Shown here one piece after another: positions 29,732 through 35,727 of a stretch of DNA of 64,000 nt; position 1 is the stretch's first letter; each line of letters begins with the position of its first letter. Under the pieces are notes generated by a model. The model was not told where the DNA came from. It worked only from the letters and a program-made list of their open reading frames with translations, and searched no databases. Location of the stretch: contig CAYMED010000001.1 in the NCBI GenBank assembly GCA_964389655.1, positions 103,780-167,779 on the forward strand. The letters run 5' to 3'. Position numbers and translations under genes: made by a program. The stretch is from an uncultured Candidatus Poseidoniales archaeon. GTDB lineage: Archaea > Thermoplasmatota > Poseidoniia > Poseidoniales > CAYMED01.

Positions 29732-30466
29732 TTAGAAACCCAGCACATTAGCGAATGAAGCACGCCAATCAGCCCCCCCATTCCGATTTGAAGCCGGATT
29801 CGCAGGACTTGGATGTGGAATGTGATCAACAATAATTTTACCTCCATCAAACAATTTTCTTGCACATTTCTCTGCATATCTTCCAACACCAATGACGCGG
29901 CTTATGTTGAGGACTTGAGCAACATCATTGAGGTGTTGGTCACAAATACTTGTGAGTTCTTTTGCCACATCTCCCCGCAGTTTATCAGGTGTAATATTTC
30001 GTCCATCTTTATCAAACATCCATAGGGGGCAATGATTGGCAACTAGTAAATGCCGATGGATTTCTTTAGCATTTCCAAAATGTGTGGAAAGAAATCCCCA
30101 AATTCTTCGTCCAGATATTTCCACTTTTGGGCATGAAAGTCCATACACCTTCCTCTTTGGGTGTGTTTTTGCAGGTTCCTTTACTTCCAAATTAGTGATT
30201 TTGAGGACATCACGAACTTTTTCTGGACATCCAAATGGGACCCCTGTGTTCCCCATCCCATGACCTGGATTCATCCCAACAAGGAGAGTTTTTGCCCCCA
30301 AACCCCCAAATCGTTCTAGATATGCTTTGTGAGGTTCCCAAGCATATTCTAGAGGATTGTAAATCCAAGCAACTGGTCCCTTGCTCATGAGTAATTGCTG
30401 AGCCACCGAAGTGGAATGGTCCCGCAAATTTTCAGCAGCAGATACGAGACCTTCAACAACATTCAT
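29732..30466 (-). CDS. SMUG1-family (family 3) uracil-DNA glycosylase
   Basis: YNPLEYAW, GMNPG, TGVPFG, EISGRR, NHCPL, HPSPANP. Confidence 0.88.
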   Translation of the reverse strand: MNVVEGLVSAAENLRDHSTSVAQQLLMSKGPVAWIYNPLEYAWEPHKAYLERFGGLGAKTLLVGMNPGHGMGNTGVPFGCPEKVRDVLKITNLEVKEPAKTHPKRKVYGLSCPKVEISGRRIWGFLSTHFGNAKEIHRHLLVANHCPLWMFDKDGRNITPDKLRGDVAKELTSICDQHLNDVAQVLNISRVIGVGRYAEKCARKLFDGGKIIVDHIPHPSPANPASNRNGGADWRASFANVLGF

Positions 30467-32184
30467 GTCCAATCCTCCAGTACTAATCGTGCCAATTCGG
30501 GTATGTCGAGATTAGCCAAATCAAACCATTCCTTGATATCACTAATGCTGGAATTTGAAGCCACAGCCTTTGCCCGCTCAGAGACCAGCCTCCAAGCAGA
30601 TTTTGCTCCAATTCCTGGGATCGATGCTAATTGTTTTTCAGAGACATGCTCGCATCTTATACCAATTTCAACTCCCGTAAGTGAGCGTGAACCATGGCCG
30701 GTTACAAGTACGTCTGATGCAGTTTCAAGTGGGATGAGATATGGTACACCAACAAGGAGGGGATACGCTCCAATTTGGCGACCAAACGTGATTCCTCCTT
30801 TTCCATGAATCATGGGATCTTTGTGCTTGTGTAAATGAACATGGTCAGGCAGTCTTGTCCGGCTGTTATGTGATTCCCAGTGCACATGATTTAGACGCTG
30901 TCCGATTGGAAACATTTCGCGAACAAGGCTAGAATCAACCGCTTTGCGGACAAATGTCTTGAATTCATCAAAATCACTCTTATTGACCTCTTGAAATCCT
31001 TCCCCTTCGACTTGTCGAATATTGATCCGACGCAACCATAATCCTTCGTCGACCAAAGATTGGAGAAAAGTACGATTGAGGTTGTATGAATGGGACGTTT
31101 CACCGTTAAGACCAGCAATAAAATTCAATCCCGGCAATAGTTGGGGTAACCCTCGTTTTCCCCTTTTTCGCCCATATTGATTTACATGCCGAATTGCAGT
31201 CAAAAGTTGATCTGAATTACAGTTTAGCCAGTTTAACTCGTGTACGGTGGGATCAACAGATTCCAACCCGAATGAAAGAACAGCACCATCCGAGAGTGTT
31301 TCAACAAGAGTTTTTGTAATCTCGGTAGAGGGTTCAATATGTTCTGAGATGATGCTAGGGTTGGCATTGTCTACATGGAGAATATCTAGTCGTTCATCAT
31401 CCCTCAGAGAATAAAGAAGTTCGGCAATTGGTTCAGGGTTTGGTATTGGATATTCGAGTTCTTGAATTCCTTCAGCCATGTATGTGTACACATCAGTCAT
31501 TCCACCTAGACGAATATGCTTGACGCCGTGATCAAGAGCAACAGATGCTTCTTCAATCACGTCTTTTGGGGTCCTCCAAATTGGCATCCCTTTCTTTGGT
31601 TCAATACAGAAGCGACACCCTCGCTTATACCGAACACAACCTTGGTATACTTCGATTTCATAGATCAAGGGCCCTCCAATATCAGGATGGTTTCTCACAG
31701 ATCGTGAAGATGCCCCTGCAATCGCCCATTTATTCCATTCATCATTTGTCCTTCTTTGTTGCTTGAAAAAACCCGTACCGAGAAATTGATTGAGTGATGC
31801 ATCTATATCTTGAACTGCGAAGAATAAATTTTCTCTGAATGGCAACCGGCCCTTCTGTTTCCACCCTCTTATTGCCCATCCTCCGGCCAGAAAAGGAAGG
31901 TGCTTTGGTGCCTCAGCAATGAGGTCGCACGCTTCTTTACACGAAATTGGCGTGCCACGCAAATATTTCCCTGGCACGATCGCTCCAGCAACAAGAACAA
32001 TGCCCTCGACATCTGAAAAATCTAATTTTTGACTATGCCGTAAATGATCTATGGTTAGATATCTGTAGTCAATCCCTCTCAGTTCCAATACACCACATAC
32101 ATACCGTACATGAAATCCAATATAGGGGGGGACGCCAAAGGCAGCTGGTTCATCTTCGTAGCCATCTATGATGAGCCAAGTCAA
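30463..32184 (-). CDS. Radical SAM protein with C-terminal helix-hairpin-helix (COG1031-like)
   Basis: IDGYEDEPAAFGVPPY, GCVRYKRGCRFC, LRRINIRQV, GRQIGAYP, IPGIG. Confidence 0.85.
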   Translation of the reverse strand: MTWLIIDGYEDEPAAFGVPPYIGFHVRYVCGVLELRGIDYRYLTIDHLRHSQKLDFSDVEGIVLVAGAIVPGKYLRGTPISCKEACDLIAEAPKHLPFLAGGWAIRGWKQKGRLPFRENLFFAVQDIDASLNQFLGTGFFKQQRRTNDEWNKWAIAGASSRSVRNHPDIGGPLIYEIEVYQGCVRYKRGCRFCIEPKKGMPIWRTPKDVIEEASVALDHGVKHIRLGGMTDVYTYMAEGIQELEYPIPNPEPIAELLYSLRDDERLDILHVDNANPSIISEHIEPSTEITKTLVETLSDGAVLSFGLESVDPTVHELNWLNCNSDQLLTAIRHVNQYGRKRGKRGLPQLLPGLNFIAGLNGETSHSYNLNRTFLQSLVDEGLWLRRINIRQVEGEGFQEVNKSDFDEFKTFVRKAVDSSLVREMFPIGQRLNHVHWESHNSRTRLPDHVHLHKHKDPMIHGKGGITFGRQIGAYPLLVGVPYLIPLETASDVLVTGHGSRSLTGVEIGIRCEHVSEKQLASIPGIGAKSAWRLVSERAKAVASNSSISDIKEWFDLANLDIPELARLVLEDWT

Positions 32185-32230: not shown

Positions 32231-33643
32231 CTATTCGTTTAGGCGCGATTCAAATTCGTTGCGAGAGATACTCCCTTCCTCAAGCATGGCCTGAAGTTCT
32301 CGTTTGGATTTTCTTTCTTTTGATCTATCTGTTCCAAGGCCAATTTTCTTATTTCCACCCTTTTGGCCAGATGGTTGCACATTTACTGGGCGGCCAAGTA
32401 TCTTGGATCGATGAAGCTTTTCAATTGCTTTACTCGCATTTTCAGGTGTCTCAAAAGTTACGAATCCGAACCCCCTTGAGCGCCCTGAATCCCGATCCTT
32501 CATGGCGATTGCATCGATCACAGTTCCGATTTGAGAGAAATGCTTGTGTAAATCAGTTGTTTCAGCTGCATGTGCTAAATTTCCAACGAATATCTTGCAT
32601 GCTGGATCGAATTTTCGTTTTCCCCCTCCCCTTTGATTCCCCTTCCCTTTCTTATCATCACCCGCTGGCCGAACACTAATTTTTGATCCTTGCATTTCTT
32701 TTCCATTAAGGTGGCCTATTGCACGTTTTGCTTCTTCAGGTGAGGACATTGTCACGAATCCAAATCCGCGTGGTTCGCGAGTATCTTTGTCTCGAACAGC
32801 AAATGCATCAGCAACGACTCCAACAACGGAGAAATGGTCATTGAGGTCTGATGTTTCAGCAGTTTTTGGCAAATTTCCCACAAATAGCCTACATGCCGGA
32901 TCAAATGCATCTCGCGGTGAATCATTGCGCAATTGGATTCCTCTTTCTCGGCGGCTTGCCGCCCATTCAGCCTCCACATTTGCAGCCCATCGTTTTCCAC
33001 TGTTATTTAGCCGACTTATTTCTTCATCAGAAGATAGGGCATAACCATGGCCAAATCCATCTGACAAATTCCGAAACTCGCGCAATTTGCATGGATGACA
33101 AACGACATTGAAATCCCCATGACCTTCAGCATCAAGGGGAAAGCCACAGTTTGTGCATTGTGCATGGAGAACTCCTAATTCGCCTCCTTTTTTTGTTGAC
33201 AATCGAACAATGGGGTCGGTGTCAATTACTTTTGCACGCAATATATCTCTTTTCCGCATTGAATTTCTAGGTTCGGGAAGAAAACGGTCAACGATCTCAT
33301 GAACCGCAATTTCTCCATATTCAAATTGAGGGATGATGCCAGTTGCAGTACTTCCTTCAATCTGTAAAATACGTATTTCTACTGAACTATTGTTGAGCCG
33401 AACAACTTCTCCAATAACAACATCGCCCTTTTCCACTTTCCCCAATCCTGAATTAATCGCATCAACACGGATTGTATTATTTGAGCGATGTACATGTCCA
33501 AGGACAGTTGCAACAAGCTGTTCTCCAAATTCAGCCACGCCACTCCCGGCTTCAGTTCCATTTGATGCGCAGATGATCGTTCCGGGAGTCACGAGTTCCT
33601 TTGAGGGGTTATCCACGTCTTGAGGGGCTCGGGTTCTGCTCAT
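32231..33643 (-). CDS. csl4: Exosome cap subunit Csl4 fused to two RRM domains
   Basis: LVTPG, KGDVVIGEV (S1), DILRAKV, LGVLHAQCTNC..CHPC..EFRNLS; then LFVGNL..RGFGFVTM and IFVGNL..RGFGFVTF. Confidence 0.85.
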   Translation of the reverse strand: MSRTRAPQDVDNPSKELVTPGTIICASNGTEAGSGVAEFGEQLVATVLGHVHRSNNTIRVDAINSGLGKVEKGDVVIGEVVRLNNSSVEIRILQIEGSTATGIIPQFEYGEIAVHEIVDRFLPEPRNSMRKRDILRAKVIDTDPIVRLSTKKGGELGVLHAQCTNCGFPLDAEGHGDFNVVCHPCKLREFRNLSDGFGHGYALSSDEEISRLNNSGKRWAANVEAEWAASRRERGIQLRNDSPRDAFDPACRLFVGNLPKTAETSDLNDHFSVVGVVADAFAVRDKDTREPRGFGFVTMSSPEEAKRAIGHLNGKEMQGSKISVRPAGDDKKGKGNQRGGGKRKFDPACKIFVGNLAHAAETTDLHKHFSQIGTVIDAIAMKDRDSGRSRGFGFVTFETPENASKAIEKLHRSKILGRPVNVQPSGQKGGNKKIGLGTDRSKERKSKRELQAMLEEGSISRNEFESRLNE

Positions 33644-33660
33644 CAATCTGTTGACCTTTT

Positions 33661-34341
33661 CTACGAAGAATATCGCAGGCATCTCCATCCCCTGACTTGG
33701 GTTTTTTTTGCAGAACTACGGTGATAGATTTGTGTTGCTGGTAAGCGATATTCAGCATCAAAGATCACTTCTGAGTTCCATCCATATTCCTCGGCTAATC
33801 GTTCAATGTGGGAGGCTGTAGCAGCATGAAGTATGTGTATGGCTTTTGCGTTAGATGTGAATGCAGCTACCATTAGAGGGCGATCTGCCCCTCGGTTTAT
33901 TGTGCCAAAAGGTGGATTCATCAAAATTGTGGCTGGCTGCAATATGTCTGGCCATTTCTCATCAATATTTGCATTCAATATAGTAACCTTTGGCGAATCT
34001 TCTTTGGGCCAGTTGCCGTGTATTGGTGGCCATCCTTTGATCTCACCTGTTGTGAGACCGAGACTTTTGGCAGCAAATACCGAAGAAGCCGCTCTTTCCT
34101 GATTCCTTTCAATCAAGAGGACTGGCTTTCCACTAATCAGGTGTGCTCCAATTCCTAATATGCCTCCTCCTGCACCAAGATCGGCAATAGGCCCTTTTGT
34201 TAAATCTCCAAGTCGAAATGCGATCTCAAGCCATCGTGCAGCTAAATCTCCTTCGGTATTCCATGCTTCATCTTCTGGACCTGCAGAAGGCGGCGTTGGC
34301 AAAGCCGATAATCGCATTGCTAGGTCACGCAATCGCATCAA
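33661..34341 (-). CDS. METTL5-like SAM-dependent methyltransferase (COG2263-like)
   Basis: DLGAGGGILGIGA, MNPPFG, ADRP; next to csl4 as in other archaea. Confidence 0.82.
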   Translation of the reverse strand: MMRLRDLAMRLSALPTPPSAGPEDEAWNTEGDLAARWLEIAFRLGDLTKGPIADLGAGGGILGIGAHLISGKPVLLIERNQERAASSVFAAKSLGLTTGEIKGWPPIHGNWPKEDSPKVTILNANIDEKWPDILQPATILMNPPFGTINRGADRPLMVAAFTSNAKAIHILHAATASHIERLAEEYGWNSEVIFDAEYRLPATQIYHRSSAKKTQVRGWRCLRYSS

Positions 34342-34674: not shown

Positions 34675-35727
34675 TCATCCTGCGACTTTAATGAATAGTG
34701 AATATTCATCTACACCTGCTGCGACTGCTCGGTCACTAGCAGATTGGAATTCTGGATGCTCAAGAATTTCAGAACCTTCAAGCCCTTCTCCCCGTAATTT
34801 GGCTATGAGGTCATCAATTTCTTTTTCCATTGTTGAAGCCGTCGAAGTACTTGAGGGGGTGATCTCTGAAATAATGTCTTGTGGTCCACTTAATGTTGAC
34901 TTTGGTGCATCTGTGGAGGATAATGGAATTGGTTGAATCGTCTGCCCTGTTGCCTGAATCACTTGCCCAACTGGTTGTGCTGGCATTTGGGTGGGTGGGT
35001 TTGGCATTGCTCCTTGTGCTGCCATTGCTTGCTGCATCCAAATTTGCTGCATCTGCATCATTTGAGCCTGTTGCATTGCCATCATTTGCTCATTAGTCCA
35101 GCCCTGCTGCATCTGCTGTGTGGCTGGCAAAACTTGGGTTGATGCAGAGTCAGCAGGGCGTGAACTGACTTTTGCAACCATCGTGCCCACATCATTCGGT
35201 AATGCCTGTGGTGTTTCTCCAGTTGGAATGAATATGAACGCTCTGCCAACAAGATGGTCTGGTCGCATGCCCATTGGGAAAAAGTCAATCTTCGGAAGTT
35301 CCGGATGCCGCCACATAGACCATGTTTGAGAATTGAAGTCCATTCTCGTAGGGACCGGAATTCCAGCAGGTATGGGAGTAATTTTGACAGAATGATCAAG
35401 CCAATCACTTCCTCGTAAACCCGCAACCCATTGTTCAACATCTTTACGCGCAATATCGACAATCTGATAGGAAGCTGACATTAAGTCAAGACCTTGACTT
35501 TCTAGAACTTCAGACTCAGCGCCAGGCCGGAAGAAGAGCGTAATTACGGGTTCATGCAAGCTTATCGTTTCTCCACGCTTTTGGAATGCAGGTCTATCTG
35601 CTCGCCGACACATGATTAGGAATCTCGTTCTGTCGCTAGAAGTACCCAGTTCTCCCCATTTCCGGCCTTCTGCCTCATCAAGGAGCTCCGCGATGGTTAC
35701 TCGATCAACGATCTCAAGTCTAGCCAC
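34675..35727 (-). CDS. Hypothetical protein with Q/M-rich linker
   Basis: 350-aa ORF; QQMQQ...QMMAMQQAQMMQMQQ segment. Confidence 0.7.
   Translation of the reverse strand: MARLEIVDRVTIAELLDEAEGRKWGELGTSSDRTRFLIMCRRADRPAFQKRGETISLHEPVITLFFRPGAESEVLESQGLDLMSASYQIVDIARKDVEQWVAGLRGSDWLDHSVKITPIPAGIPVPTRMDFNSQTWSMWRHPELPKIDFFPMGMRPDHLVGRAFIFIPTGETPQALPNDVGTMVAKVSSRPADSASTQVLPATQQMQQGWTNEQMMAMQQAQMMQMQQIWMQQAMAAQGAMPNPPTQMPAQPVGQVIQATGQTIQPIPLSSTDAPKSTLSGPQDIISEITPSSTSTASTMEKEIDDLIAKLRGEGLEGSEILEHPEFQSASDRAVAAGVDEYSLFIKVAG

Follow-up and report, generated by a model that had tools for sequence, protein, structure and literature searches.

A fusion of the archaeal exosome subunit Csl4 with two RRM domains, and its variants across the order Poseidoniales

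We analysed a stretch of 64,000 nucleotides (hereafter the window), whose minus strand contains a single open frame of 485 aa from nt 32231 to 33688. Counted from the ATG at 33643, this frame gives the csl4-RRM-RRM gene (32231..33643, minus strand; 470 aa plus stop). A second possible ATG at 33688 would create a 28-nt overlap with the gene upstream; the sequence favours neither start, there is no clear Shine-Dalgarno motif at either candidate, and the N-termini of relatives vary. The upstream neighbour (33661..34341, minus strand) encodes a COG2263/METTL5-like methyltransferase, with matches to PH1948 (1wy7, E 1.9e-17), human METTL5 (6h2u, E 1.5e-11) and Ta1320, and downstream lies a radical SAM / HhH gene (30463..32184, minus strand) with 58-63% identity to its counterparts in other Marine Group II loci. 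The initial annotation had described an uninterrupted frame encoding Csl4 and then two RRMs, beside a COG2263-like methylase. Our analysis agrees: the methylase is identified by the structure matches above and by synteny, the Csl4 and RRM profiles both match within the frame, and the assembled sequence contains no stop or frameshift separating Csl4 from the RRMs. Its approximate coordinates for the three parts (Csl4 ~33643-33055, RRMs 32893-32663 and 32599-32369) also agree to within a few codons with those recomputed here (33053-33598, 32657-32905 and 32363-32611).

The N-terminal part was identified with the NCBIfam Csl4 profile NF034126, which covers residues 16-197 (nt 33053-33598), aligns there along positions 1-178 of its 180 and scores 102.6 bits (cut-off 90). 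The concern that the N-terminus might be unlike Csl4 profiles was thus not borne out. A Foldseek search with the AlphaFold model returned A. fulgidus Csl4 as the best match (2ba1_A, E 2.2e-18, TM 0.68 on the target), and sequence search found the same protein (2ba1, E 6.5e-15). Csl4 is defined by an N-terminal domain, an S1 domain and a zinc ribbon (PMC3672285), and all three can be placed here, each with pLDDT above 90 in the AF2 model. The N-terminal domain (residues ~17-62; 33458..33595, minus strand) is matched by Pfam ECR1_N over residues 17-53 (25.2 bits) and by NF034126 from its first position, with strands at 23-62 in the model. The S1 domain (residues ~70-150; 33194..33436, minus strand) is covered by the full-length NF034126 match and the Foldseek match to 2ba1_A, and its beta strands at 75-149 are modelled with pLDDT above 90. 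The zinc ribbon (residues ~155-192; 33068..33181, minus strand) has a CxxC..CxxC arrangement from residue 163, whose four cysteines (Cys163, Cys166, Cys182 and Cys185) are invariant or nearly so in alignments. By its full-length profile match, its three domains with four cysteines and its orthologous context, the protein belongs to the archaeal Csl4 family; its 470 aa depart from the ~180-200 aa without further domains that are usual for that family, making it a variant architecture.

Beyond the zinc ribbon, the protein continues into a conserved connector (residues ~193-245; 32909..33067, minus strand) that is lineage-specific, helical and well predicted in the model, with G198, G216, R218 and W219 invariant. 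It has no counterpart in the canonical Csl4 profile, the NF034126 match stopping at residue 197. Two RRMs follow, and Pfam RRM_1 (PF00076) matched them with 131.3 bits over two stretches (cut-off 20.7; 71.1 and 68.1 bits singly), and NCBIfam Rbp_regulator also scored above its threshold (122 bits; cut-off 100). RRM1, delimited with a custom HMM (residues 247-329; 32657..32905, minus strand; pLDDT ~95), has the RNP2 motif LFVGNL and RRM2 (residues 345-427; 32363..32611, minus strand) has IFVGNL; both have RGFGFV as RNP1, both show the order of secondary structure beta-alpha-beta-beta-alpha-beta in the model, and both begin with FDPAC, so that the earlier description of two canonical RRMs with a common opening motif stands. 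The linker between them (residues 330-344; 32612..32656, minus strand) is rich in K and G, again as first described, and disordered, with pLDDT below 50 at 333-344. A basic disordered linker (residues 428-443; 32315..32362, minus strand; pLDDT below 50 at 428-441) then leads to a C-terminal two-helix tail (residues 444-470; 32234..32314, minus strand; helices 447-456 and 461-469). The tail carries the motif KRELxAMLEEG, which is conserved throughout one family of the order (f1) and partly in another (f3). Pfam SHOCT (PF09851) resembles the tail in location and two-helix shape, at a score far below its cut-off (E 0.027, 14.6 bits against 27; E 0.047 in a same-genus orthologue). As a whole, the AF2 model (mean pLDDT 87.3, pTM 0.51) depicts folded domains joined by disordered basic linkers, and at this pTM it does not reliably show where the RRMs lie with respect to the cap.

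Profile searches of the genome (2.1 Mb, 93% complete) found Csl4 and both RRMs in this gene and no other copies, NF034126 giving one Csl4 match of 105.4 bits. The order methylase-csl4-radical SAM, on the same strand, is kept in all five Marine Group II loci examined, and in the sister order of the same class, whose csl4 is short, the methylase comes before it at three of four loci examined; this shared synteny supports orthology of csl4 between the two orders. We conclude that csl4-RRM-RRM is the sole, orthologous csl4 of this organism. Its Csl4 part is more diverged than that of the sister order (102.6 against 126-166 bits with NF034126). The genome also has archaeal DnaG and, on another contig, an Rrp4-Rrp41-Rrp42 operon. 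Rrp4, Rrp41 and Rrp42 each score under their curated NCBIfam cut-offs, so assembly of the cap is assumed here.

Poseidoniales is an order of the class Poseidoniia in the phylum Thermoplasmatota, and we examined how far the fusion extends within it. A six-frame search of 40 relatives, from three families, recovered the protein from each (the fused frame in 41 of 41), with Csl4 matched inside frames of 436-598 aa, one of them ending at a contig edge; over all sampled genomes of the order with a Csl4 match, the frames measure 424-598 aa. Likewise, in a sample of 151 genomes of the class, every same-order genome with a Csl4 match has the fused long frame (families f1-f3); two genomes gave weak matches to the N-terminal region only (E 7.8e-7 and 5.1e-5), with no RRM, the latter at a contig edge. 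The fusion is therefore an order-wide trait and not a peculiarity of one genome, and it comes with several tail variants. Family f3 and this genome have Csl4-RRM-RRM; a genome of the same genus and three metagenome clusters have Csl4-RRM; family f2 has Csl4-zf_Tbcl_2-RRM; and one cluster (P0255) has two zinc fingers and no RRM. Zinc-finger and RRM modules thus occupy the same position after Csl4 in different families, and a regular-expression search for a stand-alone CxxC-x17-CxxC finger gene found none in this genome or in six sister-order RRM loci. A search for the Csl4-plus-RRM architecture had been suggested at the outset. When the Csl4 part was compared exhaustively by HMMER with 1.84 billion cluster representatives, long forms with RNA-binding arms were confined to the eleven closest clusters, ten with RRMs and P0255 with its two zinc fingers; ten other long Csl4 proteins were scanned for an RRM and had none. 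Public clusters of this architecture bear names such as Candidatus Poseidoniales archaeon (Marine Group II). Public databases label the proteins themselves hypothetical or 'cold-inducible RNA-binding'.

The sister order presents the two components apart. A short Csl4 scored above cut-off in 33 of its 45 genomes, mostly in frames of 185-200 aa, and one stand-alone RRM gene of 85-121 aa was found in 39 of the 45, including all nine of high quality. Across the phylum, RRM_1 was detected in 107 of the 301 genomes sampled. The initial premise that canonical RRMs are scarce in archaea is thus not borne out for this phylum, least of all for the sister order. Within the same sample, all of the RRM_1 matches listed for same-order genomes sit in long Csl4-type frames, and outside the class Poseidoniia RRM genes are patchy, the matches listed there being without exception stand-alone (80-158 aa).

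The common FDPAC motif had earlier suggested that the RRMs arose by internal duplication, and the comparison of the two domains bears this out. RRM1 and RRM2 are identical at 42 of 88 residues, and their DNA aligns in register without gaps. In a maximum-likelihood tree of 46 RRM domains, the two are sisters (ultrafast bootstrap 96, SH-aLRT 86), nested in a clade with single-RRM forms of the same family (96/89), while the second RRMs of family f3 form a separate clade (98/96); forcing all second RRMs together was marginally rejected (AU p 0.035). Since the closest relative of each RRM is the other, and since a genome of the same genus has one RRM only, the tandem is, on this phylogenetic reading, an old lineage-specific duplication independent of that in family f3.

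The separation of csl4 and RRM genes in the sister order raises the question of whether the fusion could be an artefact, with adjacent csl4 and Rbp-type RRM genes joined through an assembly, frameshift or gene-calling error. Against this, the frame is continuous in ~100 other genomes, including two single-contig assemblies, and in many metagenome clusters; the connector and linkers are conserved in frame; and in both sister-order genomes compared, csl4 and the RRM gene lie on different contigs. We therefore regard the gene as a genuine fusion and give the artefact practically no weight. The source of the RRM is a different matter. Constraining the 32 fused RRMs to a single clade cost no likelihood (AU p 0.65), which is consistent with Csl4 having acquired an RRM once, in the ancestor of the order. 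Deep branches do not resolve in a tree of 83 columns, which has no power to separate a clade of fused and sister-order stand-alone RRMs (AU p 0.51) from one of fused and eukaryotic RRMs (AU p 0.60). As these tests rejected none of the three groupings, we make no claim as to the donor, and of the RRM phylogeny proposed earlier it is the lineage duplication (96/86) that was supported and not a choice between a bacterial and a eukaryotic source. Transfer from a eukaryote, such as a planktonic alga, in place of a prokaryotic Rbp-type gene, would agree with the fact that the best full-length matches outside the order are eukaryotic two-RRM proteins (chloroplast RNPs, PABP), with an RNP1 of RGFGFVT(F/Y/M) that is nearer the hnRNP type than the KGFGFVEM of archaeal and bacterial stand-alone genes, and with the unrejected eukaryotic clade. 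Bacterial Rbps, however, are as similar to the fused RRMs (the best identities are 48% for these Rbps, 47% for eukaryotic RRMs and 45% for the stand-alone RRMs of archaea), grouping with the sister-order genes was likewise not rejected, and the tandem arose by local duplication and was not imported as such; we judge a eukaryotic donor to be rather unlikely. The 80 Rbp loci of the bacterial sample, none of them from Marine Group II, were picked for their resemblance to the query, which biases the sample. Two further searches did not bear on origin: a tandem-RRM search among shorter proteins returned nearly all eukaryotic two-RRM proteins, as expected from the shape of the query, and a near-length search with RRM1 alone gave 11 uninformative candidates.

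What might such an extension do? The archaeal RNA exosome has an Rrp41/Rrp42 ring with two lid proteins, one of which is Csl4. Csl4, with Rrp4, forms a trimeric RNA-binding cap atop the catalytic ring (PMC3672285), and the same source describes DnaG as binding the Csl4-exosome. In order Poseidoniales, csl4 gained a C-terminal extension made up of a conserved helical connector, one or two small putative nucleic-acid-binding modules borne on flexible basic linkers, and a short tail. This extension departs from Csl4 past the zinc ribbon, which itself comes after the pore-lining S1 domain, and from that exit point each Csl4 of a trimeric cap would hold its RRMs near the RNA entry pore. There, the RRM arms could capture single-stranded RNA, concentrate it locally around the pore and so influence the choice of RNAs for decay or tailing, and they may favour A- or U-rich 3' ends or tails. 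For Sulfolobus, one report (PMC4227792) states that DnaG and Rrp4 prefer poly(rA) and that Csl4 does not; RRM arms could thus supply Csl4 with an RNA preference of its own. The retention of DnaG indicates that the arms are no simple replacement for it. The RNA-stacking residues are kept, the linkers are flexible and basic, and the binders at this position differ between families; on the simplest reading, these are tethered RNA-catching arms that would alter the affinity, and perhaps the preference, of exosomes capped with Csl4. The variety of binders at one position further argues that the property under selection is generic nucleic-acid binding at that place. We consider it likely that csl4-RRM-RRM encodes an exosome cap Csl4 whose tethered RRM arms capture RNA at the pore and bias the choice of substrate, with cap assembly and RNA binding as predictions and any specificity as conjecture.

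Two other roles for the extension should be weighed against this one. The arms might act as a general RNA chaperone or regulator of the Rbp/CIRBP type, in response to temperature or stress or in translation, with Csl4 serving as a scaffold or acting off the exosome. Among the matches listed, genomes of the order show no stand-alone RRM gene, whereas those of the sister order carry just one, and a general role of that gene may have passed to the fused RRM; the Rbp_regulator match and the label 'cold-inducible RNA-binding protein' that one source gives to relatives point the same way. That the arms are permanently fused to the sole Csl4 throughout the order, however, speaks for an exosome-linked role, and zinc-finger modules at the same position are a better fit to substrate capture than to a specific Rbp regulon, which leaves a general regulator unlikely. 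Some RRMs are protein-binding modules, and the RRMs and tail might instead occlude the pore or bind proteins such as DnaG, a helicase or the ribosome, and not substrate RNA. The connector and the tail motif do resemble docking elements, and the sub-threshold resemblance to SHOCT hints at self-association. Yet the base-stacking aromatics of the RNP motifs are almost universally retained (the RNP1 aromatic positions in all 65 fused RRMs inspected, with an RNP2 motif recognised in 62 of 66), and basic, RGG-like linkers are typical of RNA binders; a gate or protein-interaction module seems to us less probable still than a general regulator. RNA capture by tethered arms accordingly stays our preferred reading.

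Taken across families, these observations admit a broader and more speculative view, in which the Marine Group II exosome cap is a modular 'reader' whose family-specific Csl4 arms impose sequence-selective decay or tailing in cis, with stand-alone RRM proteins elsewhere hinted to be partners of the exosome or PNPase. We hold this only tentatively. If true, such a cap would be an archaeal counterpart of eukaryotic adaptor complexes, and the fused-versus-separate pattern of the two orders would serve as a Rosetta-stone hint that stand-alone RRMs of archaea, and perhaps of bacteria, work with the exosome or PNPase. Marine Group II ranks with the most abundant archaea of surface seawater, and its members have eukaryote-style RNA-binding domains hard-wired on Csl4 and varied by family. 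How archaeal exosomes choose substrates is poorly understood; in Sulfolobus, Rrp4 and the DnaG that docks on Csl4 confer selectivity. The tail variants provide a natural set of caps for testing how tethered RNA binders shape exosome specificity, as well as a way to ask by experiment whether small RRM proteins of prokaryotes are connected with RNA decay. Although the host organisms are uncultured, all parts can be expressed recombinantly. The fusion is also a clean lineage-diagnostic marker for Poseidoniales. For DPANN archaea, one paper (PMC7414124) takes the loss of Csl4 as a marker of lineage. Full-text literature searches, whose coverage excludes most subscription journals, turned up no paper that discusses Csl4 fused to RRMs.

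Among known systems, the closest is canonical archaeal Csl4 (A. fulgidus AF0206, PDB 2ba1/3m7n; S. solfataricus Csl4; NF034126). It has in common with the present protein the N-terminal domain, the S1 domain and the four-cysteine zinc ribbon, and is likewise single-copy, beside a COG2263-type methylase, in genomes with Rrp4, Rrp41, Rrp42 and DnaG. It is, however, ~180-190 aa long against the 470 aa here, where connector, two RRMs, basic linkers and helical tail are all additional. Stand-alone Rbp-type RRMs (B. thetaiotaomicron RbpB, cyanobacterial Rbps and the sister-order genes) are free small proteins with a single canonical RRM and, in many cases, a tail that is basic or rich in Gly; they are 40-51% identical to the fused RRMs. 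They carry the motifs IYVGNL / KGFGFVEM in place of LFVGNL / RGFGFVT. The fused RRMs, unlike them, are built covalently into an exosome subunit, and in trees they group apart.

Bacterial PNPase offers a comparison at the level of the whole machine. It joins an RNase PH-type core and, at the C-terminus, the RNA-binding domains KH and S1 in one polypeptide, and is likewise a phosphorolytic 3'-5' machine with RNA-binding modules in cis round its entry pore. Its modules are KH and S1 and not RRM, and they are borne on the catalytic chain, whereas here they are on a separate cap subunit. Finally, RRMs that select RNAs for the exosome have a precedent in the eukaryotic adaptors (PMC5146272). In RBM7 of NEXT and in Nab3/Nrd1 of NNS, an RRM picks RNAs and passes them to the exosome. 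These adaptors work in trans as separate complexes, RBM7 for example sitting in NEXT with ZCCHC8 and hMTR4, whereas the archaeal RRMs lie in cis on the cap subunit and not on a separate protein. The comparison shows no specific homology past the generic RRM fold, and the likeness is one of function only. Within those terms, to see the Csl4 extension as a built-in RNA-targeting adaptor, convergent with those of eukaryotes as the initial annotation proposed, is a reasonable functional analogy.

In the order to which the window belongs, Poseidoniales, the RRM matches listed lie only inside Csl4, an exosome cap subunit, whereas genomes of the sister order of the class (for example those represented by loci L011-L016, L043 and L044) each carry a single stand-alone gene for a bacterial-like RRM of 85-121 aa, with the motifs IYVGNL and RGFGFVEM. 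Csl4 in these sister-order genomes is short and is encoded in the same genome as the separate RRM gene. Fusion in one order and separation in the other could be a hint that the RRM and Csl4 are functionally linked.

Directly downstream of the fused csl4 gene lies a gene for a radical SAM protein whose C-terminus bears an HhH motif (30463-32184, minus strand), which occupies this position in all five of the Marine Group II loci examined, at 58-63% identity. It overlaps by a few bases with the ORF that follows it (29732-30472, minus strand). On the other side, upstream of the COG2263/METTL5-like methylase gene, is an ORF of 350 aa with a central region rich in Q, M and A (34675-35727, minus strand), for which searches with Pfam and NCBIfam profiles gave no match; against the same-genus locus L006 only its final ~47 residues match, at the edge of that locus.

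The Rrp4, Rrp41 and Rrp42 genes of this genome (G000) are located at C15:41786-44000 (locus L022), and all score below the NCBIfam curated cut-offs: Rrp4 at 136.6 against 200, Rrp41 at 308.2 against 318.7, and Rrp42 at 225.9 against 280. The entire exosome of the lineage is diverged. Besides the Rrp41/Rrp42 exosome ring, this archaeon has a gene for an RNase PH of the bacterial type (C3:14385-14771; locus L023:1450-2250, plus strand), which scores 244 bits with TIGR01966, where the cut-off is 141.5.

Among Csl4 proteins from elsewhere, five protein-cluster representatives (P0306, P0321, P0364, P0296 and P0302) have an N-terminus longer by 110-300 residues; the additional residues have no Pfam match, and may reflect either fusion with the upstream gene or mis-called starts. 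The protein cluster P0255 (460 aa), which is related to Csl4, carries two zf_Tbcl_2 zinc fingers (PF23477) and no RRM. This zinc finger-zinc finger form is a fourth variant of the Csl4 tail, alongside the RRM-RRM, single-RRM and zf_Tbcl_2-RRM forms.
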